Part shown: positions 9,749-39,059 of the stretch, in pieces
How the letters are laid out: each line of letters opens with the position of its first letter
Numbering within the stretch: position 1 is the stretch's first letter
From: an uncultured Smithella sp.
Lineage (GTDB): Bacteria; Desulfobacterota; Syntrophia; Syntrophales; Smithellaceae
Length of the DNA: 64,000 bases
Assembly (NCBI GenBank): GCA_964443625.1
Contig: CAYUDM010000001.1
Location: forward strand, 80,705 to 144,704
Reading direction: 5' to 3'
Notes under the pieces: model-generated
Told to the model about the DNA's origin: nothing
Databases searched by the model: none
Seen by the model: the letters and a program-made list of their open reading frames with translations, nothing else
Position numbers and translations under genes: made by a program

Positions 9749-9777
9749 TTGACAGCCTCAAGGTGTCTTTCTATACT
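9749..9777 (+). promoter_or_regulatory. Sigma-70-type promoter for the hybrid kinase gene
   Basis: TTGACA (9749-9754), a 17-nt spacer, then TATACT (9772-9777). It overlaps the track's GTG start at 9763, which argues that the real start codon is downstream at ATG 9832. Confidence 0.55.
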
Positions 9778-9831
9778 GGAGCTCAAAGCTCGGAAAATGA
9801 CTTTGGAAAGGACAGTCAGGTAAAATACGAT

Positions 9832-12800
9832 ATGCCGTCTTATAAAAAACAGATGGTCTTCCTCATTTTGAGCTTTTTGGTCTGCCTGATCTTCATTGTC
9901 TCGTTGTTGCGGGAAATGCAGTCGCAGGCCGTCGATGTGCTAAATTCGCGCCAGAGGGTCTATGCCAAGCTGACGGCAAAAAATATATCCGATTTCTTCA
10001 CCCACCAGATGGCTGTCCTGAACCATCTGGCCCAAACCGACGAGATCATCCGCCTGGACGCCAAAGGCAAAGCGATTCTTCAGTCTTTCCAGGCAACCGG
10101 AAATAAATACATCACCGGCGTCTCCCGTGTGGACGCCCGTGGTAAACTTCTTTTTACCTGGCCGGATGTCCAGGGCGTTTCAGGCCGGGACATTTCAAAT
10201 CAGCCGCATGTCCAGCGGATTTTGCAAACAAAACAAGTGACCATCAGCGACCCCTTCACCGCCGTGCAAGGATACGAGGGCATCGCCCTGCACGCGCCTG
10301 TCTGGCGCGGCCAGCGATTCGACGGAACGGTCGCTTTTTTGATTTCGTTTGCCGATCTGGCCCGGGAGCATCTGGGCAGCCTGTTTATTCCAAACCAACG
10401 CTATACGCTTCTGATCACCGCCGATGGAAAAATCCTTCAATGCAACAACCCGGTTCACAAAGGAACGTCTGCCACGGATCTGTACCGGAGCAATCTTGAA
10501 GCGCTGGCAATGATTGATGCGATGACGGCCGGAAAAGAAGGAAGTGCGTCTTTCGTGGAACGCCAGGCCGGCGATGACTTCAACGGCCGGCGCGTTTACG
10601 CCGTTTATATACCGATTCAAGTGGGAGACAGGCACTGGGCGCTGGCGGTCGTCTCTTCTGACGATATGCTGATGCCCTCGAGCATGGGTCTGAAAAACCG
10701 TATTCTGATTCTGTCCGCCATTCTCCTTTTGATCTTTGCCGCCATCGCTTACATGGCGGCGCGCATCCGGACCGCAGCTCAGGAAGCGCAGAAGCGCTGG
10801 CAAATCGAAGAAAGTCTGCTGGTCTCAGCCCGGGAAATTCACGACCTTTACCACAACGCCCCCTGCGGCTACCATTCGCTGGACTCGCAGGGGCGGATCG
10901 TTCGCGTCAATGACACGGAACTGACCTGGCTCGGGTACACCCGGAAAGAACTCGAAGGCAAATCCTACGTCGATCTTCTATCGCCGGAAAGCCAAAAGCG
11001 GTTTACCGAAGCCTTTGATCGGGTCAAGCTTTGCAATCTGGCGCGTGACATTGAATACGACATGATCCGCAAGGACGAATCAACCTTCCCGGTTTTAGTG
11101 ACGGCGTCGGCTGTGCTGGACCCGGACGGCCGGTTTCTCATGACGCGGTCCATGGTGATGGACATTACGGAACGCCGACGACAGGAAGAACAATTGCGGG
11201 AAAGCGAAACGCTCTACCGCACCGCCATGGAGACAACCAGTGACGGCATTACCATCACCCAAAACCGCAAGTATGTCTATGCCAACAAGAAGCTCATGGA
11301 AACGATCGGCCGGCCGGATGAAGAGCTGACCGGAAAAACCGCCGGCGTTTACATTCACGCCGATGACCGGAAATTTCTGGAAGAAAATTTCGCGGCCGTT
11401 TCGCGCGGCCTTCCCATGCCGAACCCGACCTACGACATCCGTGTGGTCAAACCGGACGGTTCAGTCGTTTATGTAAGCGTCATCAACGTGCCGATCACCT
11501 ACCACGGAAAGCCGGCAACGCTGGCTTTCATCAAAGATGTCACCTTACAGAAGCAATACGAAGCGGCCCTTCAGGAAAGCGAAAAGCTCTACCGCACTGC
11601 GCTGGAAGCCACCAGCGACGGCGTCACCATCGTCCAGAACGGCATCTATGCGTACGTCAATCAAAAGTTTCTCGATACGATGGGTGTCGAGCGCGAGGTC
11701 ATTATCGATCAACCGCTGGGCATTCTGGCTGGACCTGAGGCACAGGATGGATTGAGGGCCTTTTTAAAAAGACACCCTCAGGCGGACTCCGCTGCCGATA
11801 TTAATCTCACCCGGGTCCAAAAAACGGATGGCTCATTTATTTATTTTCAGTCTTCCTCGGTGGATATCATCTATCGGGGGAAACCGGCTATCTTGACCTT
11901 CATCAAGGACATCACCGAAAGCAAAAAAGCGGAGCAGGCGCTGCGCGAAAGCGAAACGCTCTACCGCACCGCGCTGGAAACCACCAGCGACGGCGTCTCT
12001 ATTATCCAGGATGGCAAATACGTCTATCACAACCAACGCCTGCTCAATACGCTGGGCCGCCCCGGGGAAAGCCTGATCGGCCGGCCGGTGGGCCAGTTGG
12101 TCCACGGGGAGGACTGGGCGAAGGTTTTGCAGTCATACGCCAACCGCAAACCGGGAGATCCCCTGCCCGCCAATATCGAACAGCGGGTGACGCGTCCGGA
12201 CGGATCAATCATTTACATTTCCAGCAATTCCGCCAAAGTGATTTATCGGGGCCGGCCCGCCATCTTGAGTTTTCTGGTGGATGTCACCAAACGCAAGGAG
12301 GCGGAAAACGCTCTGCGCGAAAGCGAAACGCTCTACCGCACCGCGCTGGAAACCACCAGCGACGGCATCTTGATCAGCGATGTTGCGGAGGCAAAGTATC
12401 TGTACATCAATCAGAAACTACTCGACACGCTGGGCCGGCCCCATGAGAACCTCATCGGGGCCCCTATCGATCTATACATACACCCCGACGATGTCGGACT
12501 GGGGAAAAAGTACTTTCTGGAAAGAAAAAGAGAAGGCAAGAAAGCTTCGTATTATGAATCACGCCTCATTAAACCCGACGGCGACATTTCACTGATCAGC
12601 ATCACGTCAACCGACATCATCTTTCAGGGCCGCAAAGCCGTCATCAGTTTTGTTCAGGACATCACCGAAAAGAAAAGGCAGGAACAGGCACTACGGGAAA
12701 GTGAAGAACTTTACCGAACCGCCCTGGAGAAATCCAACGACGGCATATCCATCATCCAGGACGGCAAGTACGTCTATGCCAATCCGAAATTGCTCAAAAC

Positions 12801-14589
12801 GATCGGCCGGGAAGAGGAGGGCATTGTCGGTCTGCCCCTGGGCTTTTATACGCATCCGGATGATCGGGAAAAAGTCCGAGCGTATTATGAAGCACGCCAG
12901 AAAGGCGAACCCGTGCCGCAAAGTTACGACATGCGCGTCGTTAAACCGGACGGCAGCGTCATTATCATCAACATTACCGCCATCAAAATCTCCTATCAGG
13001 GCCGTCCCGCCACCATGTCGTTCATTCTGGACATCACTGAACGCAAAAAAGCGGAAGAGGCGCTTCGTCGTAGCGAGGAACGCTATCGGACGATCATCGA
13101 GAGCATTGACGATGATTACTTCGAAACAGATCTCAAAGGCAGGATCACCTTTTTCAACAAACCGACCGGCTGGTCGGGACACAAGCGCACCGAGCTGGTG
13201 GGTCGGCAGCATACCGAATACACCTCTCCCCAAATGGCCAAGAAAGTCGAAACCATTTTCAACAAGATCTATCGCGACGGCAAACCGGCCCGAATCACCG
13301 ATTATGAGGTTATTCGCCCCGACGGCCACCTGGTCTATCTCGAAATGTCCGTCTCTCTGATGCGTGATGCCGATGGCAAGCCGATCGGTTTTCGAGGGAT
13401 CTCCCGCGATGTGACCGAACAAAAGAAAATGGAGGAGGAACGGAGCAAGCTCACTGAGCAGCTCCATCAGGCGCAAAAAATGGAAGCGATCGGCACGCTC
13501 GCCGGCGGCATCGCGCACGACTTTAACAATTTACTGATGGGCATCCAAGGCTACACATCGCTTATGTTGCTGGATATGACTGAAGCTCATCCCTTTACCG
13601 ACCAGCTCAAAGCCGTTCAGACCCTCGTTCAGAGCGGCGCGACGCTGACTAAACAGCTTTTGGGATTCGCCCGCGCCGGGCGCTATGAAGTGGCGCCGAC
13701 CGATCTCAACGCGCTGATCGCCAAAGCGATCGCCCTTTTTGCCCGCACCCGCAAGGAAATCCGGATTTTTGAAAAGTACGATCCCCACCTGCGGCCGGCG
13801 GATGTCGACCGCGGACAGATCGATCAGGTTCTGCTCAACATTTTCGTCAATGCCTGGCAGGCCATGCCCGCCGGTGGTTCCTTATACGTGGAAACGCAAA
13901 ACAAAACACTGGATGACACATCGGCAAATCATCTCAACCTTCCGGCCGGCACGTATGTGCAGATTTCCATTACGGACAACGGCATCGGAATGGACGATAA
14001 AACGCTCCAGAGAATTTTCGATCCCTTTTTTACAACCAAGGAAATGGGACGCGGCACGGGTCTGGGTCTGGCCTCCGCTTACGGCATTATCAAAGGACAT
14101 GGCGGAACCATCAGCGTTTCGAGCGCCACCGGAGAGGGAAGCACGTTCGACATCTACCTTCCCGCCTCATCGTCCACGCCGGAATCCGAACAGACAGACT
14201 CCTCTGAAACGATCGGGGGGCACGAAACCGTTCTTCTGGTTGACGACGAAGAAATTATCACGGACGTTTCCGGCCGGCTGCTTGAAGAGCTGGGATACCG
14301 CGTTTTAGTCGCCCACAGCGGCGATGAAGCGTTGGTCGTTTACAACAACCGGTGCTCGGAAATCGATCTGGTGATCGTCGATATGATCATGCCCGGCATG
14401 AGCGGATCTGAAACCTTCGATCGTCTCAAGGCGATCAATCCGGATGTGCGAGTGATTCTGTCGAGCGGTTACAGCGTGGATGGCAAGGCTCAGGCAATTT
14501 TAGATCGCGGTGTGAGGGTTTTCCTGCAAAAGCCCTATCGTCTCGATGACCTGGCGCAGAAAATCCGTGAAGCGTTGGCGGATACATAA
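9832..14589 (+). CDS. Hybrid sensor histidine kinase: TM, Cache-like periplasmic domain, TM, about 7 PAS domains, HisKA, HATPase, receiver
   Basis: The N-terminus has two hydrophobic segments flanking a Cache-like region. Tandem PAS modules repeat around (E/R)[13 protein letters not shown]. The H-box is [17 protein letters not shown], the ATPase boxes are NAWQAM and GTGLGLA, and the C-terminal receiver reads VLLVDDEE...[14 protein letters not shown]. The track ORF begins at GTG 9763; I prefer ATG 9832 ([13 protein letters not shown]...) because of the promoter position. Confidence 0.9.
11200..13440 (+). repeat. Tandem array of six roughly 372-378-nt PAS-module repeats inside the kinase gene
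   Basis: The repeat anchor GAAAG(C/T)GA(A/G)... (ESE.LYRTA) recurs at 11200, 11575, 11947, 12319 and 12697, with a more diverged sixth copy (RSEERYRT) near 13068. An exact 54-nt duplicate occurs at 11941-11994 and 12313-12366. Confidence 0.9.
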
Positions 14590-27393: not shown

Positions 27394-27405
27394 GTTTTTC
27401 GACTC

Positions 27406-27423
27406 CGGGGGCCATTGCCCCCG
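27406..27423 (+). terminator. Short GC hairpin after the zinc-ribbon gene
   Basis: CGGGGGC-catt-GCCCCCG is a perfect 7-bp stem, but only a weak T-tract (TTCATT) follows. Confidence 0.35.
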
Positions 27424-27617
27424 TTCATTGAACCTTTAGCCGACGCATCCACAATCTCCGGCAATGCCTGGTCAAACGTTTTGTTGCCGCGCCGCTTTTG
27501 ATCCGACTTGTTCTTCCTTCAATCGGCGTCTTTGCTTTCTCCGGACACGCGCTTTTTTAGGCTCTTGTTCCGGATGGACGTTTTTTCAACCCTTTAACAC
27601 CTGAAAGGAGGAAGGTT

Positions 27618-28034: not shown

Positions 28035-29204
28035 TTAACCGACAAACCAACCGTAAGCCATTCCGGCAGTGGTGGACATAGCCACGACAATCGCGCAGAA
28101 CACGGCGGTTTTCTTAACCCCCATAATGCCTGCAATCGCAATCATATTGGGAAGCGACAAAGCCGGTCCCGCTAAAAGCAGCGCGAGCGCCGGACCCTGG
28201 CCCATGCCGGAACCGATCAATCCTTGCAGAATCGGCACTTCGGTAAGCGTGGCAAAATACATGAGCGCCCCGACGATAGAGGCAAAGAAATTGGCCCATA
28301 GTGAGTTACCGCCGACAAGCATCTGAATGTAGGATTCAGGAATCAGCGCCGGATGACCGGGACGGCCTAACAGAAATCCCGCCACCAAAACGCCGGCAAA
28401 CAACAGCGGTAGAATCTGCTTGGAAAAATCCCAGGTGGACTGCACCCAGTCTTTGATTTCATCCTTTACAAACCACTTTTTAAGCATGACACCCAGAACA
28501 ATCATCAGCGCGATCACCACAAACCACTTGACGCTGAAGATCGTCCGCCACAGCATTCCGTCATCATCGGATGGCTTTGCAAACGACGCAAAAATCAGGA
28601 TTAAAACCATCGTCAGCATATAAAGACCGTTTTTCCACAGCGGCCGGGTTTCCTCCTCGTCGGGCAAAAAGATTTCGCCCGTTTCACGATTGGCGTCGTC
28701 TTTGCGGAAAATAAACGCCATTAACAAACCCGTGACAATGGCAAAAATAATTGCGCCAATCGCGCGGGCGAGCCCCAACTGCCAGCCCAGCACCTTCGCG
28801 GTCAGAATAATCGCGAGCACATTGATCGCGGGACCGGAATAGAGGAAAGCCGTCGCCGGGCCTATGCCTGCGCCGCGTGTGTAAATACCAGCAAACAGCG
28901 GCAGCACCGTGCAGGAACAAACCGCCAGCACCGAACCGGAAACGGACGCAACGGAATAAGACAGAATCTTATTGGCTTTGGCTCCAAAATATTTGAGCAC
29001 GGCCGCCTGCGAGACAAACACACTGATTGCCCCGGCGATGAAAAACGCGGGGATCAGGCAGGTGAGCACATGCTGGCGGGCGTAGTCCTGAAGCATCATA
29101 AACGCTTCGAGGCCCGCCTGACGAATCAGCAGCGCATCCCAGGGGATAAAATACGCGCCCAGAAAGATGCCGACGATCCACAGTAATTTTTGCCACTCTT
29201 TCAT
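28035..29204 (-). CDS. ArsP-like permease (PF03773-type 'predicted permease')
   Basis: 389 aa and polytopic. It has the vicinal-cysteine motif AVCSCTVLPLFAG characteristic of this permease family. It is the last gene of an ArsR-headed operon. Confidence 0.75.
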   Translation of the reverse strand: MKEWQKLLWIVGIFLGAYFIPWDALLIRQAGLEAFMMLQDYARQHVLTCLIPAFFIAGAISVFVSQAAVLKYFGAKANKILSYSVASVSGSVLAVCSCTVLPLFAGIYTRGAGIGPATAFLYSGPAINVLAIILTAKVLGWQLGLARAIGAIIFAIVTGLLMAFIFRKDDANRETGEIFLPDEEETRPLWKNGLYMLTMVLILIFASFAKPSDDDGMLWRTIFSVKWFVVIALMIVLGVMLKKWFVKDEIKDWVQSTWDFSKQILPLLFAGVLVAGFLLGRPGHPALIPESYIQMLVGGNSLWANFFASIVGALMYFATLTEVPILQGLIGSGMGQGPALALLLAGPALSLPNMIAIAGIMGVKKTAVFCAIVVAMSTTAGMAYGWFVG

Positions 29205-29214
29205 CTTGAAGCGC

Positions 29215-30258
29215 CTATTTCTTTCCGGCGGCCAGATGCGCCTGAAGTTTTTTCAAACCATCCCATATTTCATCCGAACCGACATATTTTTGAGTTTCTG
29301 CGCCCGGATACCTGATGATGCAAGTCGGCGTCGCGTCAATTTTATGTTCTTTGATGACAGCGCTCAAAAGCGGGAAGATGGACTTTTCGTCCATAGGCTT
29401 GATGGCAATGTTTTGTCCTTTCAGATAGGCGGCTAAATCGTCTTCTTTCTTAATTCTTTTTTCCTGCGCTGCACAAAATAGTTCCGCCCGGACATGGAGA
29501 AGGTTTTCGATGGCCGGATCGGCATTCACCGCATACAGATAATATTTTGCATAAACCGGCGTAATGCGTGAAAAGGGCACGTCAACAAACATTATCTTTA
29601 CTTGATCTGTCGCCACCAGCTCTTTGAAAAGCCCTTCAGCTTTGGTGTCGATGGCTTTACACGGCGGGCAAAAATAATCGGAAAATATAATCACTTCATA
29701 AGGCCCCTTCCCCAGTGACGGGATCACGCGGACTGCATCCTGCCCGTAAACCGGCGTTACGGAACCGGTAAATGTTAACAGAATAGATATATATCCCAGC
29801 ACGCTCATCAACAACAACGGAAATCTCTTTATTTTTAACATCGGCACATTCACCTCCCCAAGGAAATACAGCCACATCCGGCTGCGCTTTTCGCGCCAGG
29901 CGGACGGAACTTCATAATTCATCAGAAACGACAAAATCAACATCACCGAAAACGCCAGACAAAACGGGCAATAGACGTCGTTTTGCCATTGAAACGCGTA
30001 CAGATGAACCTCTACACCCAAGCCCGCAGCCAGAAGTATCCGGACAAAAGCCGTCTGTTTAAACGCGGCAAAAACAATCACGACCGACATGTAAGCGATA
30101 CCGACCCATTTGAGGTCGATCCCCAAAATATCCCCTTTCAGGTAACTGCAGGCGGTATCACAGTAATCGTAATACGCCATAAGTCCAATACCTACAAGCG
30201 CCAGGAGAATCGTACCAATGTGGCGATACTTTTTAATGAAGGCAAAAACATCAGACAT
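29215..30258 (-). CDS. VKOR/DsbB-like membrane domain fused to a DsbA-like thioredoxin domain
   Basis: 347 aa. The N-terminal half has about 5 TM segments, a loop Cys pair (YCDTAC) and an in-membrane CPFC. The C-terminal soluble domain has FSDYFCPPCKA, a DsbA-type CPxC. Confidence 0.65.
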   Translation of the reverse strand: MSDVFAFIKKYRHIGTILLALVGIGLMAYYDYCDTACSYLKGDILGIDLKWVGIAYMSVVIVFAAFKQTAFVRILLAAGLGVEVHLYAFQWQNDVYCPFCLAFSVMLILSFLMNYEVPSAWREKRSRMWLYFLGEVNVPMLKIKRFPLLLMSVLGYISILLTFTGSVTPVYGQDAVRVIPSLGKGPYEVIIFSDYFCPPCKAIDTKAEGLFKELVATDQVKIMFVDVPFSRITPVYAKYYLYAVNADPAIENLLHVRAELFCAAQEKRIKKEDDLAAYLKGQNIAIKPMDEKSIFPLLSAVIKEHKIDATPTCIIRYPGAETQKYVGSDEIWDGLKKLQAHLAAGKK

Positions 30259-30281
30259 ACCAAGCTCCCTCTATTCACGAA

Positions 30282-30701
30282 TCAAATGCCTTGCGTTTGC
30301 AAGAAAACCTGCAACTTCGTTTTAATCTCATCTCGAACACGCCGGAATTCCCGTAAAATATCTTCGTGGCTTCCGGTGGCTTTGGCCGGATCGTCAAACC
30401 CGATGTGTGTCTTTTTCGTACCGCCGATATAAAGAGGGCAGGTTTCGTTGGCGTCGCCGCACAGCGTGATGACATAGTCGAAGGTTTGACCATCAAACTC
30501 GGATAGATTTTTTGACCGATGCGACAAAATATCAATGCCGATTTCTTTCAAGACCTCAATGGCCTTGGGGTTTACAAACGATGCGTTCGTTCCCGCAGAA
30601 TATGCCTCCAGCCGGTCACCCCAAAAATGGTTGGTGATGCCTTCGGCTATTTGCGACCGGCAGGAATTTGCCGTGCATAAAAACAAAACTCTTTTTTTCA
30701 T
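30282..30701 (-). CDS. arsC: Arsenate reductase, LMW-PTPase (thioredoxin-coupled) type
   Basis: 139 aa. The P-loop is LFLCTANSCRSQ (CX5R). The downstream Cys pair is in TLCGDANETCP, the pattern equivalent to pI258 ArsC Cys82/Cys89. Confidence 0.9.
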   Translation of the reverse strand: MKKRVLFLCTANSCRSQIAEGITNHFWGDRLEAYSAGTNASFVNPKAIEVLKEIGIDILSHRSKNLSEFDGQTFDYVITLCGDANETCPLYIGGTKKTHIGFDDPAKATGSHEDILREFRRVRDEIKTKLQVFLQTQGI

Positions 30702-30707
30702 AAATTT

Positions 30708-31415
30708 CTAAATCCAGTTCAACGCAATCAGATAAACGCCGCCCAGAATCACCAGCACACCGCAAACCTTTTTGAGGATGACCGCGCCTTTGGACTTTTC
30801 ACTCCAGTGCAGGTAATGCTGTACCACTTCTGTAAACGTCCCTGCGAAGACCAGCACGGCGCAGTGCCCCACAGCAAAAGCCGCCAGAAGTGATATCGCC
30901 AGCGCAAGCTGCGTGGAGGCCATACTGAATACGACGCCCAGCATCGTCGCCATGTAGGCGAATGTACAGGGCCCCAGCGCCACACCAAATATGAGCCCAA
31001 GGATAAACGCCGCCAGAAATCCTTTTCTTTTGTAATTGGGGTTTGCGCCGCCTTCCATGAAAGGCAGAGGCAACACGCCCAGCAGATTCAACCCGACGGC
31101 GAAAAAAACAATCGCAACAACATAATTGCCGTAGCCGCCGATATCCCCCATCATACGTCCTGCCAGAGCCGTGATGAAACCGATCAGACCAATCGTGATG
31201 AGAATGCCCATTCCGAAAAGGAGTGACAGGACAAAAGCCCGGCCTGTGCTGATGTTCCCCTGTCCGTCAATGAAGCCGACAATCAAGGGAATGCAGGCAA
31301 TGTGACAAGGGGAAAGGATAACCGACAGGATACCCCAGGCGAATGCCGCACCGATGGCGATTTCCGGAGACTGGGTAAGAGCGCCTGTCAGCCAGGTGAA
31401 TAGTTCAACCAGCAT
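30708..31415 (-). CDS. ccdA: CcdA/DsbD-family transmembrane thiol-disulfide electron transporter
   Basis: 235 aa with six TM segments and the two conserved membrane cysteines in LSPCHIA and LGPCTFA. Confidence 0.85.
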   Translation of the reverse strand: MLVELFTWLTGALTQSPEIAIGAAFAWGILSVILSPCHIACIPLIVGFIDGQGNISTGRAFVLSLLFGMGILITIGLIGFITALAGRMMGDIGGYGNYVVAIVFFAVGLNLLGVLPLPFMEGGANPNYKRKGFLAAFILGLIFGVALGPCTFAYMATMLGVVFSMASTQLALAISLLAAFAVGHCAVLVFAGTFTEVVQHYLHWSEKSKGAVILKKVCGVLVILGGVYLIALNWI

Positions 31416-31966
31416 TATTTAACCCCACCCCTTTTTAGGATCTCGACGACACCCTCCTGGGGAAAATAGCCTTCATGTCGGAAATACTCATTTCCGTCCT
31501 GATTTAAGAAGACCTGCGTGGGAATGACGCGAATATTGTACTTAGCCGCATCCATTTTCCCCTCGGGCGTCCAGACGTCATGAAATACAACTTTGAGCTG
31601 CTCGCCGAATTCCTCTTCCACCGCTTTCATGACGGGCTGCATCGCGCGGCAGGGAATGCAGTTGACGGAACCGATTTCCACAAAGGTCACAACCGGCATT
31701 TTCTTTTTTTCAACATCCGCCGGTTTCTTTTCAGGAGCAGCAGGAGCGACAGGCGCCGCCTGGAACGGGACATTCGATGGCGCAACTGCGGCCTCGGAAA
31801 CTTCAGTGGCTTCCTGCCTCGGTGTTTCCGGTTTAATATTCGCAGCCTCGGTTCCTGCATTCTCCACGGCCGCGGTGTTATCGCCCGCATCATCCGATTT
31901 TCCACAACTCATTAAGAGCAACACCGCAACCACGATAAGTCCAATTATTTTCAAACGCATAATCAT
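31415..31966 (-). CDS. Periplasmic thioredoxin-family lipoprotein
   Basis: 183 aa. The signal peptide has the lipobox LLLMSCG, followed by a low-complexity A/P/E linker and a thioredoxin fold with CIPC (GSVNCIPCRAM). Its stop overlaps the ccdA start by 1 nt. Confidence 0.8.
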   Translation of the reverse strand: MIMRLKIIGLIVVAVLLLMSCGKSDDAGDNTAAVENAGTEAANIKPETPRQEATEVSEAAVAPSNVPFQAAPVAPAAPEKKPADVEKKKMPVVTFVEIGSVNCIPCRAMQPVMKAVEEEFGEQLKVVFHDVWTPEGKMDAAKYNIRVIPTQVFLNQDGNEYFRHEGYFPQEGVVEILKRGGVK

Positions 31967-31997
31967 GCAACAACCCTTTCCATTATTATTGCTGCTT

Positions 31998-32231
31998 TCA
32001 GCCCTTAATCCAGCCTTTGATCTGGTCTTCCGAAGGGATTTTTCCGGCCGCCTTCACTTCGCCGTTGACCACCAGAGCGGGCGTCGTCATGACACCGTAG
32101 CTCATAATTTTTTTAAAATCTTCGACTTTGGAAATATCGGTGCTGACACCTTCTTTCCTGGCGACTTCACGAACCAATTCTTCCAGCTTATGGCACTTTG
32201 CACAACCGACACCCAAAACTTCAATCTTCAT
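31998..32231 (-). CDS. Small thioredoxin-fold protein (redox-active disulfide protein 2 / Thioredoxin_3 type)
   Basis: 77 aa. MKIEVLGVGCAKCHKL...TPALVVNGEV is the typical Thioredoxin_3 pattern. Confidence 0.8.
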   Translation of the reverse strand: MKIEVLGVGCAKCHKLEELVREVARKEGVSTDISKVEDFKKIMSYGVMTTPALVVNGEVKAAGKIPSEDQIKGWIKG

Positions 32232-32298
32232 AGCCTTGACTCCTTAAGTTTAAAATTCCATGACACGCAGGTTAAATTGATATGACCTTTACCGGCGA

Positions 32299-32628
32299 TT
32301 ACCGGCAACACCGCAAAATCGCTTTTTGTTCACGGACATTGGAGGAAAGCACGTCTTCTACACAACCCATGAACTGCATCACGCATGGCGTCCGCAGCGT
32401 ATAAAAAATGGAATTTCCCCGCTTGTCGTCACTCACCAGACCGGCATTTTTCAAAACACTCAAATGCTTGGACACGGTGGACGCGTCCGCGCCAATCATG
32501 TCGGTGAGTTCGCCAACACAGCGCTCGCCTTTGTTGAGCTCCTCGATAATCAGCAATCGACTGGGATGCGCCATGGCCTTGATGATTTTTGCCCGCGCTT
32601 CATAACGCGCCTTTAAAGAATTCTTCAT
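32299..32628 (-). CDS. arsR: ArsR/SmtB-family transcriptional repressor
   Basis: HPSRLLIIEELNKGERCVGEL...STVSKHLSVLKNAGLV. I prefer the start at M18 (ATG 32628), because the longer track start at 32679 would cover the palindromic operator. It has a single Cys (RCVGEL), not the CVC triad. Confidence 0.85.
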   Translation of the reverse strand: MKNSLKARYEARAKIIKAMAHPSRLLIIEELNKGERCVGELTDMIGADASTVSKHLSVLKNAGLVSDDKRGNSIFYTLRTPCVMQFMGCVEDVLSSNVREQKAILRCCR

Positions 32629-32640
32629 AACACCCCCTAT

Positions 32641-32658
32641 GCTATTTGGCAAAATAGC
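32641..32658. promoter_or_regulatory. Candidate ArsR operator (inverted repeat)
   Basis: GCTATTT-ggca-AAATAGC is a perfect 7-bp inverted repeat located 13 nt upstream of ATG 32628. Confidence 0.4.
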
Positions 32659-32767
32659 CATGTAGCATAGTGTTGTCAAGGTATATTATTTACCCTGAAG
32701 ACGACCGGCATAAACACTTGATTCCATTTATTCTTGATGGTCTCTGCACGAGAGACGATTACACCGA

Positions 32768-33031
32768 TCAGGTTCCGCCGAAAAGTGGAATGCCGCCGCG
32801 CAGGGAACTTTCCCCCAAAAACCCGACCGTCACCTTTTCGCCTTCGACGATGACGGGGACCTGTCTTCTTCCCCCGGAAAGCGTGAGCATTTCTTTGAGC
32901 TTTTCAGCGTCTTTGTCTACGTCTATAAAGACGGCTCTGTCTTTGTAAGCTTCTTGCGCCTGCACGCAGAAAGGACAGGTGGACGTGCCGTAAATCAATA
33001 TTTTTTTGCCCGTTTTATCTGTGCACTGCAT
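32768..33031 (-). CDS. Glutaredoxin-like protein
   Basis: ILIYGTSTCPFCVQAQEAY has a CPFC active site, and the gene ends with a Grx-like ...VPVIVEGEKVTVGF. ATG 33031 is preceded by GAGGAAGG; the track start at 33043 is a GTG. Confidence 0.8.
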   Translation of the reverse strand: MQCTDKTGKKILIYGTSTCPFCVQAQEAYKDRAVFIDVDKDAEKLKEMLTLSGGRRQVPVIVEGEKVTVGFLGESSLRGGIPLFGGT

Positions 33032-33050
33032 ACCCTTCCTCACCGATGTT

Positions 33051-34109
33051 TTAAAGTCCGTCTTGCTTTTGAAAATACTTCTGCTGAAATTTGAGCGCCA
33101 CCGTTACCAGGGCAATCATCACCGGCACCTCGACCAGCGGGCCGATCACCGCGGCGAACGCGGCGCCGGAAGAGATGCCGAACACCGCAATCGCCACGGC
33201 AATGGCAAGCTCAAAATTATTGCTGGCCGCCGTGAACGCCAGCGTCGTCGTTTTGGAATAGTCTGCGCCAAGCTTCTTTCCCATGTAAAACGACACCAGA
33301 AACATCACGACAAAGTAAATCAAAAGCGGAATGGCGATGCGCACGACGTCCATCGGCAAGGTAATAATTAAATTACCCTTGAGACTGAACATGACCACAA
33401 TGGTGAACAAAAGCGCAATCAGCGTGAGCGGACTGATGAGCGGCACAAAGCGCGCGTGGTAGCGCTCCTTCCCCATCACCTTGACACCGACCAGCCGGGT
33501 GAGCGCGCCCGCGATAAAGGGAATACCCAGATAGATGAAAACGCTCTCAGCAATCTGGCCGATGCTGACATCCACAACAACGCCGGCGATTCCAAAATAG
33601 GGCGGAAGGACCGTGATAAAAAACCACGCAAACACGCTGTAAAACAAAACCTGAAAAATGCTGTTGAAGGCCACCAGACCCGCCGCATATTCCGTGCTGC
33701 CTTTGGCCAGTTCATTCCAGACGATGACCATCGCAATGCAGCGGGCAAGCCCGATCATGACAAGCCCCACCATATAGTCGGGCTTGTCCGGCAAAAAGAT
33801 AATGGCCAGGGCAAACATCAGAATCGGCCCGATAACCCAGTTTTGCACCAAAGACAGGCCCAGAATTTTGAAATTGCGAAAGACGCGCGGCAGCTCCTCA
33901 TATTTCACTTTGGCAAACGGCGGATACATCATCAAAATAAGCCCTGCCGCGATGGGAACATTGGTCGCCCCCACCTGAAAGCGGTTGATGAAGCCTTCAA
34001 CGCCCTCAATGAAATAACCAAAGCCCACGCCCAGAATCATGGCCGCGAAGATCCATAATGTGAGAAAGCGATCTAAAAAGGACAATTTATTTGCGATATG
34101 CTCTGACAT
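33051..34109 (-). CDS. acr3: ACR3-family arsenite efflux transporter
   Basis: 352 aa with 10 TM segments. The N-terminus [13 protein letters not shown] and the motif [11 protein letters not shown] (conserved Cys in TM4) are typical of Acr3. Confidence 0.9.
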
Positions 34110-34124
34110 GATTCCCCTGGCCTT

Positions 34125-34628
34125 TTAACTGATATTTTGAGCGGCTTCCAAAAGCCATTGCTGGATTTTTTTCTTCTCCGGCACAGAACCCACGGCAACA
34201 ACTTTGCCGTTTATGATTAAAGCGGGCGTTCCCATGACCTCGTAGCGGCCGATTTCCTTGATGTCGGTCACATGCAGTAAATCGCCCGCCAGATTTCCTT
34301 CAGCCATGACATCGCGCACACTCGATTCCAAAGATGCACACTGGGCGCAACCCGGACCCAGAATCACAACCTGCAAACCGCAAAAGGCCTCTTCTTCAAC
34401 GTCTTCACCCATGAACTTCTTATACTCACGAAACAACGCTTTACCGTAGGCTTCCTTGATGGTGGATGGGATATAATTGCGTTTCCCCACGCGCTTGAGC
34501 AGCTCGCCGGTGATTTCCGCTTCGGTTTTCTCCTTAGCCCATTCCACAATCGCCTGAATGTTGTATTCCAGACCGACGACACCCGTCTGCCGCCCGTCAA
34601 CTCGAATTTGAGAAACCTTGTTTTCCAT
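34125..34628 (-). CDS. Fusion of an uncharacterised ~85-aa N-terminal domain to a Thioredoxin_3 domain
   Basis: 167 aa. The C-terminal half, VVILGPGCAQCASL...TPALIINGKVV, parallels the 77-aa protein at 31998-32231. I do not recognise the N-terminal half. Confidence 0.7.
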   Translation of the reverse strand: MENKVSQIRVDGRQTGVVGLEYNIQAIVEWAKEKTEAEITGELLKRVGKRNYIPSTIKEAYGKALFREYKKFMGEDVEEEAFCGLQVVILGPGCAQCASLESSVRDVMAEGNLAGDLLHVTDIKEIGRYEVMGTPALIINGKVVAVGSVPEKKKIQQWLLEAAQNIS

Positions 34629-34662
34629 GATGAACCTCTAAATATTCTTCTTTCGGTATACA

Positions 34663-35010
34663 CTAAGATCGTTTACAACCGGATTTGCGCTCTATATCCG
34701 GCAATCTTTTTACCATCTGATGAATCTGCGCGTCGTCGGAGAACCAATGGCTGAGATTGCCTAAAAGCACGGCCGCATAGGGATTGTCGCTTGGGTACCG
34801 GAGGGAATAATACACCCATAAGCCGTCCTTGTCCCCTTTGACCAAACCGGCCTTTTCAAGCGCCTTCATATGCTTGGACACCGTCGGCTGGGCCATATCC
34901 AAAAGCTCTTGAATTTCGCAAACGCACAGGGTTTTAATCTGTAGAATCTTTAATATTCTTACCCGTGTGGCATCAGAGAGCGCTTTCATCACGCTTATGA
35001 AATGATCCAT
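34663..35010 (-). CDS. arsR: ArsR-family arsenite-responsive repressor
   Basis: 115 aa. DATRVRILKILQIKTLCVCEIQELL contains the CVC As(III)-binding motif, and the HTH is QPTVSKHMKALEKAGLV. Confidence 0.9.
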   Translation of the reverse strand: MDHFISVMKALSDATRVRILKILQIKTLCVCEIQELLDMAQPTVSKHMKALEKAGLVKGDKDGLWVYYSLRYPSDNPYAAVLLGNLSHWFSDDAQIHQMVKRLPDIERKSGCKRS

Positions 35011-35022
35011 GTTCTCCCCTAA

Positions 35023-35042
35023 ATATTCCTTTTTTGGAATAT
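35023..35042. promoter_or_regulatory. Candidate ArsR operator (inverted repeat)
   Basis: ATATTCC-tttttt-GGAATAT is a perfect 7-bp inverted repeat located 13 nt upstream of ATG 35010. Confidence 0.45.
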
Positions 35043-35323
35043 ATAGAGATGCCTGGGGCCTTTGTCAAGTGCATTTTCCGGCGGAGGTTCTTTCATGTGC
35101 AAGACCGCCGGATTAAACCTTGATCAGCCTCACCCGGCTTTGGTAAAACACGTCTCTGCCGCCCATCGGATCGACAAGGCCGGTGTTTTGATGATTGGGA
35201 TTGATAATCAACGGATTTTCCGTTAGCCTACACGAGCTGCCTCAAGATCAGGCGCTTGTGTAAAAAAGAAAGCCTTATGCCACGATAAATGTTTGCCCAT
35301 CGAGCCAGACGTGAGTTGACAAC

Positions 35324-37014: not shown

Positions 37015-38196
37015 CTAAGCCCCGATGGACGAAAGAATCTCAGGAATGTCGGAATAGTCGTCAAACCAGATCGGATGGACGCCGAGTTGTTCGAGAATGA
37101 AGCTTTGCTGATCCACATCGACGCGGTGCACTTCTTCGATGATGGAAACGATCTGCTCCTGCCAGTCGCTATCAGCCGATTTAAACTTTTCCTCCCAGTC
37201 GGTTTTAACGCCGCTGACTTCAAAACGATAGAAGTAAGTCAACGCCTTTTCATTGATGCGGTTTAACTCGGCCTGATCCGGTTTTTTCAAGGCCGGTTTT
37301 TTCAAGAGCGCATAATTGTTCGTCTCGACGGGCATTTGGGAGACCGCGTCAAGCAGCCTGCGCATGTTCCGGTCGGACAAAGACAGGCCGATCATCAGCC
37401 CCGTAGTGCTCGATAGAGATTGAATCTGCACCAGATTGGCCCAGGAGTAGGCGTCCTTGGCGGACTGGTGATATTGATCTTCAGTAAAGACGATGTCCTG
37501 CTCGGTCAGTTCCGTCACATTGAGCGGAACATAGCCGTGCACATGATAAATGGGCAGCTTACCCCGTCCAAGCGGCGCGGCCTTGCAGATTGCCTGATAC
37601 GGATGCCCGGCAAGCGAAATTTCCAAAAGGGAATCATAATTATAGGTAATGACGCCCCGCACACCCCTCCGACCGTCGGACGCCCCCCGGCATAGATTCG
37701 TGATCGCCCCCAGCGTCGGGTTGCCACGGCAGATCGCGGCGGGATCGACTGCCGATTCGCCCTCTTTAAATCCGTCTAAAAAACCGGCGTAGAGAGTCTC
37801 CCACAGATGGAGCATGAAGTCATCGTCATCCTTGTAATACCGTCGAAGCTTGCGCGCGGTGATTTCCAGAGGCTCGTTGGTGCGTTCCAGATGCCATTCG
37901 GCGGTGGCGAAAAGATAACTCGGATAAAGCCGCCAGGGCGTCGGGGCGTGTTTGCCCAGCGCCGAAAAATACATTGCCAATACCAGTTTATCCCAGGTGG
38001 GAAGGCCGCTTCCGACGGATACACCGGCGCCCAGATAAAGCGACAGATTGCCGTTTTGATACGCTTTGCGCAAAGACTCAATCGAATCGCAGCAGATACC
38101 GCTCACAAAACCTCCGGCAGTGGAAAATGAAGTTAAAAACTTCCTTGAAATTTTGAATCTGGAATCATCAAACGATAAATCCAGTTTGCGAGACAT
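37015..38196 (-). CDS. SIR2_2-family (ThsA/DSR-type sirtuin-like) protein with an unassigned C-terminal region
   Basis: 393 aa with the motifs LYLGAGVSVGSGLPTWDKL (GAGxS...P.W), ITYNYDSLLE (TxNYD), LPIYHVHGY (catalytic-His context), IVFTEDQY and GLSLSDRNMRRLL. It starts 17 nt after the J-domain gene's stop. Confidence 0.8.
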   Translation of the reverse strand: MSRKLDLSFDDSRFKISRKFLTSFSTAGGFVSGICCDSIESLRKAYQNGNLSLYLGAGVSVGSGLPTWDKLVLAMYFSALGKHAPTPWRLYPSYLFATAEWHLERTNEPLEITARKLRRYYKDDDDFMLHLWETLYAGFLDGFKEGESAVDPAAICRGNPTLGAITNLCRGASDGRRGVRGVITYNYDSLLEISLAGHPYQAICKAAPLGRGKLPIYHVHGYVPLNVTELTEQDIVFTEDQYHQSAKDAYSWANLVQIQSLSSTTGLMIGLSLSDRNMRRLLDAVSQMPVETNNYALLKKPALKKPDQAELNRINEKALTYFYRFEVSGVKTDWEEKFKSADSDWQEQIVSIIEEVHRVDVDQQSFILEQLGVHPIWFDDYSDIPEILSSIGA

Positions 38197-38213: not shown

Positions 38214-39059
38214 TTACATCCAGTATTTTTTGTTGTGCATTTTCATCTCAACGACAAGTTTGAAAAGATCGCCGGACGTGAGAAGTCGTTCATCGAGGAA
38301 ATATTTACCGATCCGGGGCTGGGTGGTTTTCTGCTTTTCTAAAATTCGCGTCAGCTGATAGCGGGACAGATACCCCAGCCGGATCGCACACTCCCCGAAC
38401 TTTTCGCCGTATTTACGGGATCGCAGAATGGCAAGAACATCCGGCCCCGTAAGCCAGTCCCAGCTGACCGCAATCGCGCCGACCGACGGCCGATGCAGAC
38501 GCTGCCAGACGATGGCCTTGATCAATTGCGACAATGAGATGCTTCCCGAATAATACAGGTATTGCCCCAGAAGCAGACGCCGCGTTGGCATCCGGCCCGA
38601 ATACAGAGGTTCGGCGGGCGTTCGGGGTTTTGCCTGACGGGGTTGCGTAAAGGTCGCCGATTTCGCGCGGGGTCGGAAGCCGGAACGCGCGGAGGGGGAC
38701 TGATCGGCGCGCCGGTGGGTCTGCCGCCGCTGATAGAGCGCGCCTTTTTCATCGAGGGAATACTTCCAGGGCGCGGCCATAAACTCCAAAAGAAGTTGAT
38801 AGGCCACACTGACTTCCTTGAACCGGTCGGCAAGGAAGTCCGAATTGCCGCTCGTCACAACGGCCCGGTCGGGATGCGTTTCCATCGCTTTTTTACGGTA
38901 CGCGGCTTTAACGCCCGCGGGCTTGAGATAACGCAGAAATTCCACCGACACGTCGATGTCGGTTCCAAAAAGGGATTCACAGGCTTTGAACAGATCCTGA
39001 CGGGAGACGGCCGTATCGGACAAAAACGATCTCCTTTTCAGCGTTTTATTGCCTCGCAC
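38214..39059 (-). CDS. J-domain protein with C-terminal tandem MshEN/GspE_N-like repeats
   Basis: The J-domain is ...GVKAAYRKKAMETHPDRAV...FKEVSVAYQLL with the HPD tripeptide. An R/P/S/Q-rich linker covers aa ~105-160. Four 24-residue repeats of the form xLGxx(L)xxxGx(I/L)xxxxLxxx(L/I)xxQ follow. The track start at 39059 is a GTG. A TTG at 39023, preceded by AAAGGAG at good spacing, is an equally good or better start. Confidence 0.8.
   Translation of the reverse strand: MRGNKTLKRRSFLSDTAVSRQDLFKACESLFGTDIDVSVEFLRYLKPAGVKAAYRKKAMETHPDRAVVTSGNSDFLADRFKEVSVAYQLLLEFMAAPWKYSLDEKGALYQRRQTHRRADQSPSARSGFRPRAKSATFTQPRQAKPRTPAEPLYSGRMPTRRLLLGQYLYYSGSISLSQLIKAIVWQRLHRPSVGAIAVSWDWLTGPDVLAILRSRKYGEKFGECAIRLGYLSRYQLTRILEKQKTTQPRIGKYFLDERLLTSGDLFKLVVEMKMHNKKYWM

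Follow-up and report, generated by a model that had tools for sequence, protein, structure and literature searches.

The stretch of DNA analysed here, hereafter the window, comprises 64,000 nucleotides (nt) of contig CAYUDM010000001.1 from an uncultured Smithella sp., and carries on its minus strand, between positions 28035 and 35068, eleven closely packed genes in which arsenic-resistance determinants are interleaved with genes encoding thiol-disulfide proteins (Table 1). A preliminary description made from the sequence alone had proposed these eleven genes, their motifs and their division into two units, each headed by an ArsR-type repressor. All of the open reading frames (ORFs) were found where it had placed them, and searches of Pfam and NCBIfam supported its family assignments, with the exception of a protein called as a glutaredoxin and the VKOR half of a fusion protein. 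The locus forms an arsenic-resistance island in the chromosome of a Smithella-like (Syntrophales) anaerobe and consists of two ArsR-headed units, here termed A and B.

Table 1. Genes, promoters, operators and RNA element of the arsenic-resistance island, listed in the direction of transcription (coordinates are those of the window; aa, amino acids; TM, transmembrane).
Feature	Coordinates	Strand	Remarks
Promoter, unit A	35040-35068	-	TTGACA 35063-35068, 17-nt spacer, TATATA 35040-35045
Operator O1 (putative)	35023-35042		ATATTCC-N6-GGAATAT, over the -10 box
arsR1, ArsR/SmtB repressor	34663-35010	-	HTH_5, LCVCE, C-terminal Cys112
xTrx3, 167 aa, N-domain of ~82 aa plus MTH895/ArsE-type Thioredoxin_3 (GCAQC)	34125-34628	-	TIGR00412
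acr3, arsenite efflux permease	33051-34109	-	TIGR00832 equivalog
grxU, predicted UXX-star glutaredoxin-like selenoprotein	32759-33031	-	NF041114; CPFC and GGT-U-SV tail
Selenocysteine insertion sequence (SECIS)-like hairpin, GUCUCU-CGUGC-AGAGAC	32740-32756	-	Begins 11 nt past the UGA
Promoter, unit B	32651-32679	-	TTGACA-17-TATTTT
Operator O2 (putative), TGGCTATTTTGCCAAATAG, nested palindrome	32642-32660		Over the -10 box
arsR2, ArsR/SmtB repressor	32299-32628	-	HTH_5, CVG where CVC expected; C37, C81, C89 (and C108)
trx3, 77-aa cytoplasmic MTH895/ArsE-type thioredoxin-like protein	31998-32231	-	PF13192, TIGR00412, GCAKC
pTrx, exported lipoprotein thioredoxin	31415-31966	-	Lipobox LLMSC, active site CIPC
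ccdA, DsbD-type transmembrane thiol-disulfide electron transporter	30708-31415	-	PF02683
arsC, thioredoxin-coupled arsenate reductase of the low-molecular-weight protein tyrosine phosphatase type	30282-30701	-	Alignment to 1JL3, 1LJL
vkor-dsbA, 347 aa, five-TM VKOR-like plus periplasmic DsbA-like domain	29215-30258	-	Loop C33/C37, CPFC at TM4, CPPC
arsP-like permease, 389 aa	28035-29204	-	PF03773 (ArsP_1), CSC motif

The genes of the island are separated by gaps of 6-67 nt or, in the case of ccdA, overlap, the ATG of this gene sharing one nucleotide with the TGA of pTrx (ATGA), as in translational coupling; the sole larger gap, of approximately 130 nt, houses the second promoter and operator. 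The G+C content of the island is approximately 0.50, relative to 0.55-0.57 in the flanks, which are made up of ordinary chromosomal genes such as mnmA and those encoding pyridoxal phosphate-dependent enzymes, a biotin carboxylase and a GGDEF protein. A mobile element was considered for the window and rejected in view of these flanks, the lower G+C content of the island being noted all the same. A transposase was seen near the cluster in one related locus (L001).

The earlier proposal of two operons was borne out in that each unit has its ArsR gene first and is served by a separate sigma-70-like promoter and by a conserved palindromic operator of its own. The TTGACA hexamer of unit A and its spacing were kept upstream of 12 ArsR1 orthologues, with the O1 motif retained in 12 loci as ATATTC(C)-N6-8-(G)GAATAT; within the window, O1 is matched exactly at a single place (0.19 expected by chance), and at two further places with two mismatches each. 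The promoter of unit B was the best promoter-like site in its region (10 of 12 matches), and its TTGACA was kept upstream of approximately 30 ArsR2 orthologues. Operator O2 is likewise present as a single exact copy in the window (0.03 expected) and belongs to a motif family, TATTTGGC-N-GCCAAATA, that was conserved upstream of the same number of ArsR2 orthologues. Across genomes, each operator type went with its own ArsR type (12 ArsR1 loci and approximately 30 ArsR2 loci). ArsR1 would bind O1 and ArsR2 would bind O2, each operator lying over the -10 box of its own promoter. No terminator was identified between the two units, hence read-through from A into B is possible.

Both repressors matched HTH_5 (PF01022; 59.8 bits for ArsR1 and 57.2 bits for ArsR2) and NF033788 (93.2 and 88.4 bits, respectively). 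The CVC motif (LCVCE) of ArsR1, which in As(III)-responsive repressors of the R773 type forms the As(III) site where the recognition-helix region begins, and its C-terminal Cys112 were invariant in 12 orthologues. ArsR2 had been described as lacking the CVC site, and CV(G/N) indeed replaces CVC in this protein, yet it was not found to be devoid of conserved cysteines: amongst 31 orthologues, C37, C81 and C89 were invariant and C108 was mostly kept, with C37 aligning to the Cys32 position of the R773 CVC site. ArsR proteins bind arsenite, As(III), at sites of type 1, CVC(X2)C, type 2, a C-terminal CC...C, or type 3, an N-terminal CC together with C55, and the cysteine arrangement of ArsR2 fits none of these three types.

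The absence of CVC had also led to the suggestion that operon B responds to a different inducer. This was weakened by six related loci (L011, L024, L042, L045, L080 and L081) in which a single operon containing Acr3/ArsC carries the same operator and has an ArsR2-type repressor as its sole regulator. Since such repressors alone head these operons, arsenic is the most likely inducer of ArsR2, which on this comparison probably functions as an arsenic sensor; the inducer may be a different arsenical species, for example methylarsenite, MAs(III). Binding of arsenicals to the conserved cysteine triads would free both repressors from DNA. ArsR2 gave side matches to the BigR model (53 bits) and to BigR and SqrR structures in the PDB; a persulfide sensor of the BigR/SqrR type was nonetheless disfavoured, in that C37 aligns with position 32 of R773 and not with the BigR/SqrR cysteines, and in that ArsR2 heads Acr3/ArsC operons.

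The cytoplasmic arsenic genes are of familiar types. Acr3 scored 442 bits against TIGR00832 (cut-off 282.8) and its Cys124 was invariant in 41 orthologues. ArsC aligned over its full length with the Bacillus subtilis ArsC (1JL3; E = 3.6e-35) and the pI258 ArsC (1LJL), with the CX5R loop (CTANSCRS) and the equivalents of Cys82 and Cys89 (TLCGDANETCP) in register, and was therefore assigned to the thioredoxin-coupled type; its C9, C81 and C88 were invariant amongst orthologues. The ArsP-like permease matched PF03773 with 266 bits, and both cysteines of its CSC motif (C96 and C98) were invariant in 32 orthologues. This family also takes in the Cu/Zn (SO_0444) and SaoE branches, and the permease scored below the equivalog cut-offs of both SaoE and SO_0444. 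It shares with the methylarsenite efflux protein ArsP of Campylobacter jejuni its membership of PF03773 and a Cys-X-Cys in a TM helix, and is likened to that protein by family and motif, being longer at 389 aa compared with the approximately 315 aa of C. jejuni ArsP.

Two of the thioredoxin-like proteins are small and cytoplasmic. Trx3 matched PF13192 (102.6 bits) and TIGR00412 (105.4 bits, cut-off 62), with C10 and C13 invariant in 37 orthologues, and the C-terminal half of xTrx3 matched the same TIGR00412 model (MTH895/ArsE; 83.8 bits) as well as the PDB structure of MTH895 (1ILO; E = 2.8e-5), its C94 and C97 being invariant amongst orthologues. The N-terminal domain of xTrx3 (residues 1-82; 34383-34628, minus strand) had no match in the PDB and none to a Pfam family beyond DUF6956 at E = 0.11. 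An exhaustive search retrieved 219 clusters of this domain at 50% identity, the conserved features of which are G..G.GL, NYIP, a Y and F..E..FLG. Amongst 60 sampled members, 47 were fused to Thioredoxin_3, and no other named domain was seen; the domain occurs almost exclusively ahead of Thioredoxin_3 or by itself. A word-indexed search returned only four stand-alone homologues.

The product of the gene following acr3 had been regarded as a plain glutaredoxin ending at a TGA codon, an assignment that had to be revised. The protein, here termed GrxU, scored 86.4 bits against NF041114 (UXX-star selenoprotein family 1; cut-off 72). In the ORF as called (32768-33043), the TGA at 32768-32770 is followed by TCG GTG TAA, such that the predicted product ends FGGT-U-S-V, U denoting selenocysteine (Sec), and the true stop is the TAA at 32759-32761; the start is most likely the ATG at 33031, behind a AGGAAGGG ribosome-binding site. 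The TGA was followed by two more codons (S/A-V; A-V-K in one copy) and then a stop in 13 of the 13 orthologues examined, and the orthologue in L016 (6772-7008) has a second TGA at the first cysteine position of CPFC, a Cys/Sec pair. The 6-bp hairpin downstream was 100% paired in 13 sequences, its outer pair switching between GC and AU; its folding energy of -8.5 kcal/mol (z = -0.33) is that of an element too small to reach significance alone. On these sequence features, the supposed glutaredoxin gene is predicted to encode a UXX-star selenoprotein with Sec as the third residue from the C-terminus, which ordinary ORF calling shortens by three residues, and reading the codon as Sec corrects the gene call. 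GrxU has the same glutaredoxin-like fold, CxxC and Sec position as UXX-star family 1 ("distant Grx-like protein 1"), with no structural difference. This family is already known, and what is notable about GrxU is its conserved place directly after acr3.

The remaining redox proteins are directed to the cell envelope. pTrx matched Thioredoxin and Thioredoxin_2, its signal peptide and lipobox were read from the sequence, and its C103 and C106 were invariant; the CxPC motif, to which the CIPC of pTrx conforms, is characteristic of reductants, ResA and TlpA among them. CcdA scored 41.4 bits against PF02683 (cut-off 27.1), with the TM cysteines C37 and C150 invariant in 28 orthologues, and proteins of the CcdA/DsbD family pass electrons outward. 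Homologues of CcdA were 83-100% identical across more than 120 clusters, compared with at most 78% for the neighbouring fusion protein; a copy with 94% identity was labelled as belonging to a Chloroflexi metagenome-assembled genome (MAG), and points to either mis-binning or horizontal transfer in recent times. The pair resembles CcdA-ResA/CcmG and DsbD-DsbC in combining a CcdA protein that has two invariant TM cysteines with a coupled, adjacent and membrane-anchored CxPC thioredoxin. It differs from both in having no cytochrome c maturation genes nearby, in its ArsR-type control and in the small cytoplasmic thioredoxin-like gene that precedes it.

The preliminary description had further proposed a VKOR-like/DsbA-like fusion, the DsbA-like half of which was supported by sequence and the VKOR-like half by fold and cysteine pattern, and not by sequence. 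The C-terminal domain matched PF13462 (Thioredoxin_4/DsbA-like; 38.9 bits, cut-off 23.2), a profile of 48 fusion homologues matched Staphylococcus aureus DsbA (1e-7, residues 182-333) and BdbD, and Foldseek searches with a model of the full-length protein (predicted local distance difference test (pLDDT) score 80.8) returned ScsC (4GXZ best) and many DsbA proteins. Its thioredoxin fold contains a helical insert, and both its CPxC motif (CPPC), of a kind typical of oxidants, and its cis-Pro loop (T310-P311) were invariant.

Since the full-length fold search was swamped by the DsbA-like domain, the N-terminal domain (residues 1-168) was modelled apart. The five best matches amongst 350,542 PDB chains were all VKOR proteins (4NV6, 3KP9, 4NV5, 4NV2 and 6WVB), with probabilities of 0.97-1.00; the query-normalised TM-score was 0.61-0.67 against Synechococcus VKOR (the first four entries) and 0.47 against the Takifugu VKOR-like protein (6WVB). 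In 73 fusion sequences, four cysteines were invariant, including C97 and C100, and C33/C37 were present in 72, the other having an alignment gap. This pattern is VKOR-like, with a loop pair (C33/C37), a CPFC at the start, or periplasmic end, of TM4 and a CXXC in the fused domain; by the positive-inside rule, the DsbA-like domain and all six cysteines are predicted to be periplasmic. The best structural match, the Synechococcus VKOR fusion (3KP9/4NV2/4NV5/4NV6), has the same four-helix core, fifth TM helix and periplasmic thioredoxin-fold domain, and likewise bears a cysteine pair in a loop and a CXXC both at TM4 and in the fused domain. Relative to it, the window fusion has no detectable sequence similarity, lies inside an ars operon, spaces its loop cysteines as CX3C, and carries a full DsbA-like domain with a helical insert as opposed to a plain thioredoxin-like one. 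We accepted the N-terminal half as having a VKOR-like fold and wiring, without Pfam-level membership, on the basis of the modelled fold and the cysteine pattern. Bacterial VKOR homologues stand in for DsbB.

A reducing and an oxidising-type envelope relay, as had been claimed, are both encoded, the former by Trx3, CcdA and pTrx and the latter by the VKOR-like/DsbA-like fusion, each with conserved anatomy. The reading that we favour, and which we judge to have an even chance of being correct, is that ArsR-controlled cytoplasmic detoxification is joined here to inducible reducing and oxidising arms in the envelope that shield periplasmic thiols from exported As(III). Both units would be induced by arsenic. 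ArsC would reduce arsenate, As(V), by way of a Cys9/Cys81/Cys88 cascade, a role taken from its known family, and the thioredoxin-type donor recharging it would most plausibly be the Trx3 and xTrx3 encoded alongside it in the locus. Acr3 would export As(III), the ArsP-like permease would export another thiophilic species, probably an organoarsenical, and GrxU, beside Acr3, may either carry As(III) with high affinity or function as a redoxin. In the reducing arm, electrons would pass from Trx3 through CcdA to the CIPC site of the lipoprotein thioredoxin. In the oxidising arm, the CPPC of the DsbA-like domain would oxidise exported dithiols, with the electrons passing to the VKOR-like domain (first its loop cysteine pair, then CPFC) and on to menaquinone. 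The two arms would duplicate, in arsenic-inducible form, the oxidase and reductase that ordinarily look after cysteines in the periplasm, and would serve to keep envelope proteins, such as disulfide proteins and apocytochromes c, from the As(III)-vulnerable free dithiol state or to rescue them from it, a protection that would be needed while Acr3 builds up As(III) in the periplasm.

The preliminary description had made its proposal depend on the gene association being conserved elsewhere, which was the case in dozens of Syntrophales genomes. Fusion homologues numbered at least 649 clusters at 90% identity, the best 120 listed being 67-78% identical to the window protein. Matching genomes, in a genome search that favours close relatives, were nearly all Smithella, Smithellaceae and Syntrophaceae MAGs, together with one Nitrospirota MAG. 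Neighbouring genes were tabulated by tblastn, and the gene order was found to recur in dozens of Smithella/Syntrophales genomes. A near-identical two-unit layout was present in L009, L014 and L016 (the ArsP gene of L009 lying past the contig end), larger single-operon versions were present in L011 and L080, and many genomes had a single ArsR2-headed operon. The order in the single operons, with variable members in brackets, is ArsR2-Trx3-(F420_oxidored)-pTrx-CcdA-(355-aa lipoprotein)-ArsC-(xTrx3)-Acr3-(GrxU)-fusion, followed by (secreted DsbA-like)-(secreted rhodanese)-ArsP-(TauE-FmdE). A total of 46 fusion-family genes had enough flanking DNA to be placed, and 28 of these sit in ars clusters, in which Acr3 occurred 27 times, Trx3 25, ArsR2 24, CcdA with pTrx 20, ArsP 20 and ArsC 13 times; xTrx3, acr3 and grxU form a conserved triad. 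Across the encoded proteins, the active-site cysteines were invariant amongst orthologues.

The other 18 fusion genes are paralogues, most of which occur in two further conserved contexts, the neighbours being named from a reading of their N-terminal sequences and not from family scans. In the first (L031, L051, L063, L072, L077 and L086), the fusion gene accompanies genes for NifX-like, DUF134, MinD-type FeS ATPase, radical-SAM and pyruvoyl arginine decarboxylase proteins. In the second (L046, L047, L059, L061, L069, L070 and L085), it is divergent from a flavodoxin-like gene, the product of which resembles WrbA-like NAD(P)H:quinone oxidoreductase, a likeness that is merely suggestive as regards a quinone role of the VKOR-like domain. 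These non-ars contexts, and the resemblance of both modules to housekeeping systems, would be expected if CcdA-pTrx and the VKOR-DsbA fusion were merely co-located with the arsenic genes and served cytochrome c maturation and disulfide formation. We consider such incidental co-location extremely improbable, given that dozens of genomes keep this order in ArsR-headed operons, with intergenic distances of 6-30 nt and a single overlap, that the G+C content of the island lies below that of its flanks, and that housekeeping-like paralogues exist elsewhere in the same genomes. Several genomes have two or three copies of the fusion, with HGW-Deltaproteobacteria-12 and SDB_sulfate1 carrying two each.

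A related block was also found outside the Syntrophales. On the betaproteobacterial plasmid pSCD of Sulfuricella denitrificans (L095; NC_022358.1, 47801-62487), a thioredoxin-CcdA-OsmC-TauE-FmdE block, with a CcdA of 56% identity, sits amongst RND and CDF efflux genes and ArsC. As this plasmid carries a metal-resistance island, Trx-CcdA(-TauE-FmdE) is not confined to Syntrophales or to arsenic-only loci, which fits a general envelope-thiol role under thiophilic metal(loid) stress.

Accessory redox genes in ars operons have a history. Castillo & Saier (2010) inventoried, without experiments, eight ars operons containing such genes, under ArsR and with ArsC, Acr3 and an ArsP homologue; these contain the same three accessories as the window, namely CcdA, a thioredoxin and a Thioredoxin_3/MTH895-type protein. 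PF13192 proteins of ars operons have already been named ArsE. The combination seen in the window had been called unusual, which for CcdA, thioredoxin and ArsE was thus an overstatement; the VKOR-like/DsbA fusion in an ars context appears to be unreported, no report linking VKOR to ars operons having been found in the literature searched. Compared with the 2010 operons, the thioredoxin of the window is clearly an exported lipoprotein, the locus is divided between two repressors, and there are in addition the VKOR-like/DsbA fusion, a second Thioredoxin_3 protein with an extra N-domain and the predicted selenoprotein glutaredoxin. What is new is the recruitment of a VKOR-like/DsbA oxidase, the conserved xTrx3-Acr3-GrxU(Sec) triad, the N-domain specific to Thioredoxin_3 proteins and, in one ArsR, a non-canonical set of conserved cysteines.

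The 2010 survey proposed that the accessory genes feed ArsC, and the same may be argued for the window: the redox genes would merely power the cytoplasmic ArsC as a private thioredoxin system, and CcdA would be no outward conduit. In favour of this are the thioredoxin-coupled nature of ArsC and the occurrence, in the same units, of the cytoplasmic CxxC proteins Trx3 and xTrx3; arsC was present in seven of the eight operons surveyed, and the F420_oxidored/NADP-type reductase encoded behind Trx3 in larger clusters could recharge Trx3. Conversely, pTrx bears both a signal peptide and a lipobox, its gene is coupled in translation to ccdA, members of the CcdA/DsbD family are established outward carriers of electrons, the VKOR-like/DsbA fusion is of an oxidising type that faces the periplasm, and ArsC was found in fewer of the ars-linked loci (13 of 28) than was CcdA with pTrx (20 of 28). 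Castillo & Saier themselves noted that outward electron flow was a misfit with a cytoplasmic ArsC. Supply of ArsC as the whole purpose of these genes is, in our estimation, decidedly unlikely.

A different possibility is that several of the thioredoxin-fold proteins are chaperones or sinks for As(III) and not redox catalysts. By analogy, xTrx3 and GrxU would hand As(III) to Acr3 as ArsD does to ArsA, and the CPPC-bearing DsbA-like domain and pTrx would bind periplasmic As(III) as ScsC binds Cu(I). The conserved xTrx3-acr3-grxU triad is in keeping with this, as are the predicted quality of the GrxU Sec tail and CPFC as a tridentate As(III) site, the standing of ScsC as the best fold match of the DsbA-like domain, and a weak ArsD match of a neighbouring Thioredoxin_3 protein in L007. 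A review also counts UXX-star proteins amongst the selenoproteins tied to metal(loid) resistance, the Sec residues of which may be metal ligands. CcdA and the VKOR-like domain are, however, electron-transfer devices, which implies that their partners redox-cycle, and the CxxC motifs are those of classical redox proteins. We regard the chaperone explanation as unlikely for these proteins.

Extended clusters in relatives (L001/L011, L004 and L080) contained the F420_oxidored/NADP-type reductase gene right behind Trx3 and encoded the 355-aa lipoprotein, for which there was no Pfam match, a secreted 204-aa DsbA-like protein, a secreted rhodanese, TauE and FmdE, some also with DGC (PF08859). In L004 (13344-17041), L093 (244-5410) and L094 (233-5399), the cluster adjoins genes for a Fer4_11-NrfD-molybdopterin (1073 aa) complex of the TtrBCA/Psr/Arr type, a proximity that may point to a connection with respiratory chemistry of sulfur or arsenic. 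Such neighbours, along with the putative thioarsenicals formed by a sulfate reducer with ArsR-ArsP-ArsE operons, may indicate that the periplasmic arms carry out chemistry on the metalloid, such as making or breaking thioarsenicals or reducing As(V) or organoarsenical(V) species, and do not protect proteins. The window locus, however, has no rhodanese, TauE or FmdE, and the molybdoenzyme complex is absent from the window. No enzyme of this kind, moreover, is known to apply DsbA/VKOR or CcdA/Trx chemistry to arsenic, and we hold this explanation, which draws purely on context, to be very unlikely.

Several observations weigh against the envelope-protection reading that we favour. Arsenic induction, the electron path and the periplasmic substrates were all inferred, and an oxidase and a reductase encoded in one operon could short-circuit unless kinetically insulated in the manner of DsbA/DsbC. 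The N-terminal half of the fusion did not match Pfam VKOR (PF07884) at E<=1, nor did phmmer or the 48-sequence profile match it to a VKOR in the PDB. Its Foldseek E-values were weak (0.04-0.37), and its model had a pLDDT of 65 alone and of 72-89 across most of that region when the whole protein was modelled. Fusion paralogues in at least two non-ars contexts indicate that the family is not arsenic-specific. ArsC fell below the NCBIfam equivalog cut-offs (TIGR02691, 141 against 174.3; NF010053, 134 against 215), and neither tRNA-Sec nor selenocysteine machinery was found in the 64-kb window.

A broader version of the favoured reading joins the ArsR-controlled envelope arm to a function of GrxU and xTrx3 as As(III) carriers for Acr3 and to a new cysteine triad in ArsR2, with one cysteine in alpha-3 and two in alpha-5. 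As a combination, this is tentative, and we think it possible yet on the improbable side. If true, it would be the first case of a periplasmic thiol-protection pathway being assigned to arsenic, and would supply a function for the CcdA and thioredoxin genes that have been noticed in ars operons since 2010.

The nearest functional analogue of the envelope genes is the Scs system (ScsB, DsbD-like; ScsC, DsbA/DsbG-like), likewise a periplasmic thiol-redox module for metal stress that is built from DsbD-family and DsbA-fold proteins. Scs is tied to copper and its ScsC is kept reduced by ScsB, whereas the DsbA-like domain of the window appears to be wired to an oxidising VKOR-like partner, and the partner of CcdA is a separate thioredoxin.

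The surroundings of the island contained further features of note. An Rfam scan of the region from 26 to 37 kb gave a single sub-threshold match, to CRISPR-DR16 (27401-27434), probably by chance. Between 26000 and 28000, the G+C content falls to 0.456 over small genes encoding a 113-aa ORF without a family, an FmdB-type zinc-ribbon protein with a Ser/Cys-rich tail, and a dodecin. The gene at 37015-38196 (minus strand) encodes a SIR2_2-domain protein with weak matches to the defence proteins ThsA (8.7e-15) and LmuA, and may be a defence gene or simply encode a SIR2-family enzyme; next to it, at 38214-39059 on the same strand, lies the gene for a DnaJ-domain protein. A 1608-aa hybrid sensor kinase with dCache, approximately seven PAS, HisKA/HATPase and receiver domains is encoded at 9763-14589 (plus strand) and is unrelated to the ars island.

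Arsenic resistance is usually pictured as a cytoplasmic process in which the metalloid is reduced and then pumped out. To this picture, the locus and its relatives add an exported thioredoxin as the partner of CcdA, the recruitment (in Syntrophales) of an oxidising VKOR-like/DsbA module, and a predicted selenoprotein beside Acr3. If the envelope-protection model is true, it would parallel the copper-linked Scs system and would offer defined genes, operators and cysteines for direct tests. It would also explain how these cells tolerate the high periplasmic As(III) made by their own pumps.

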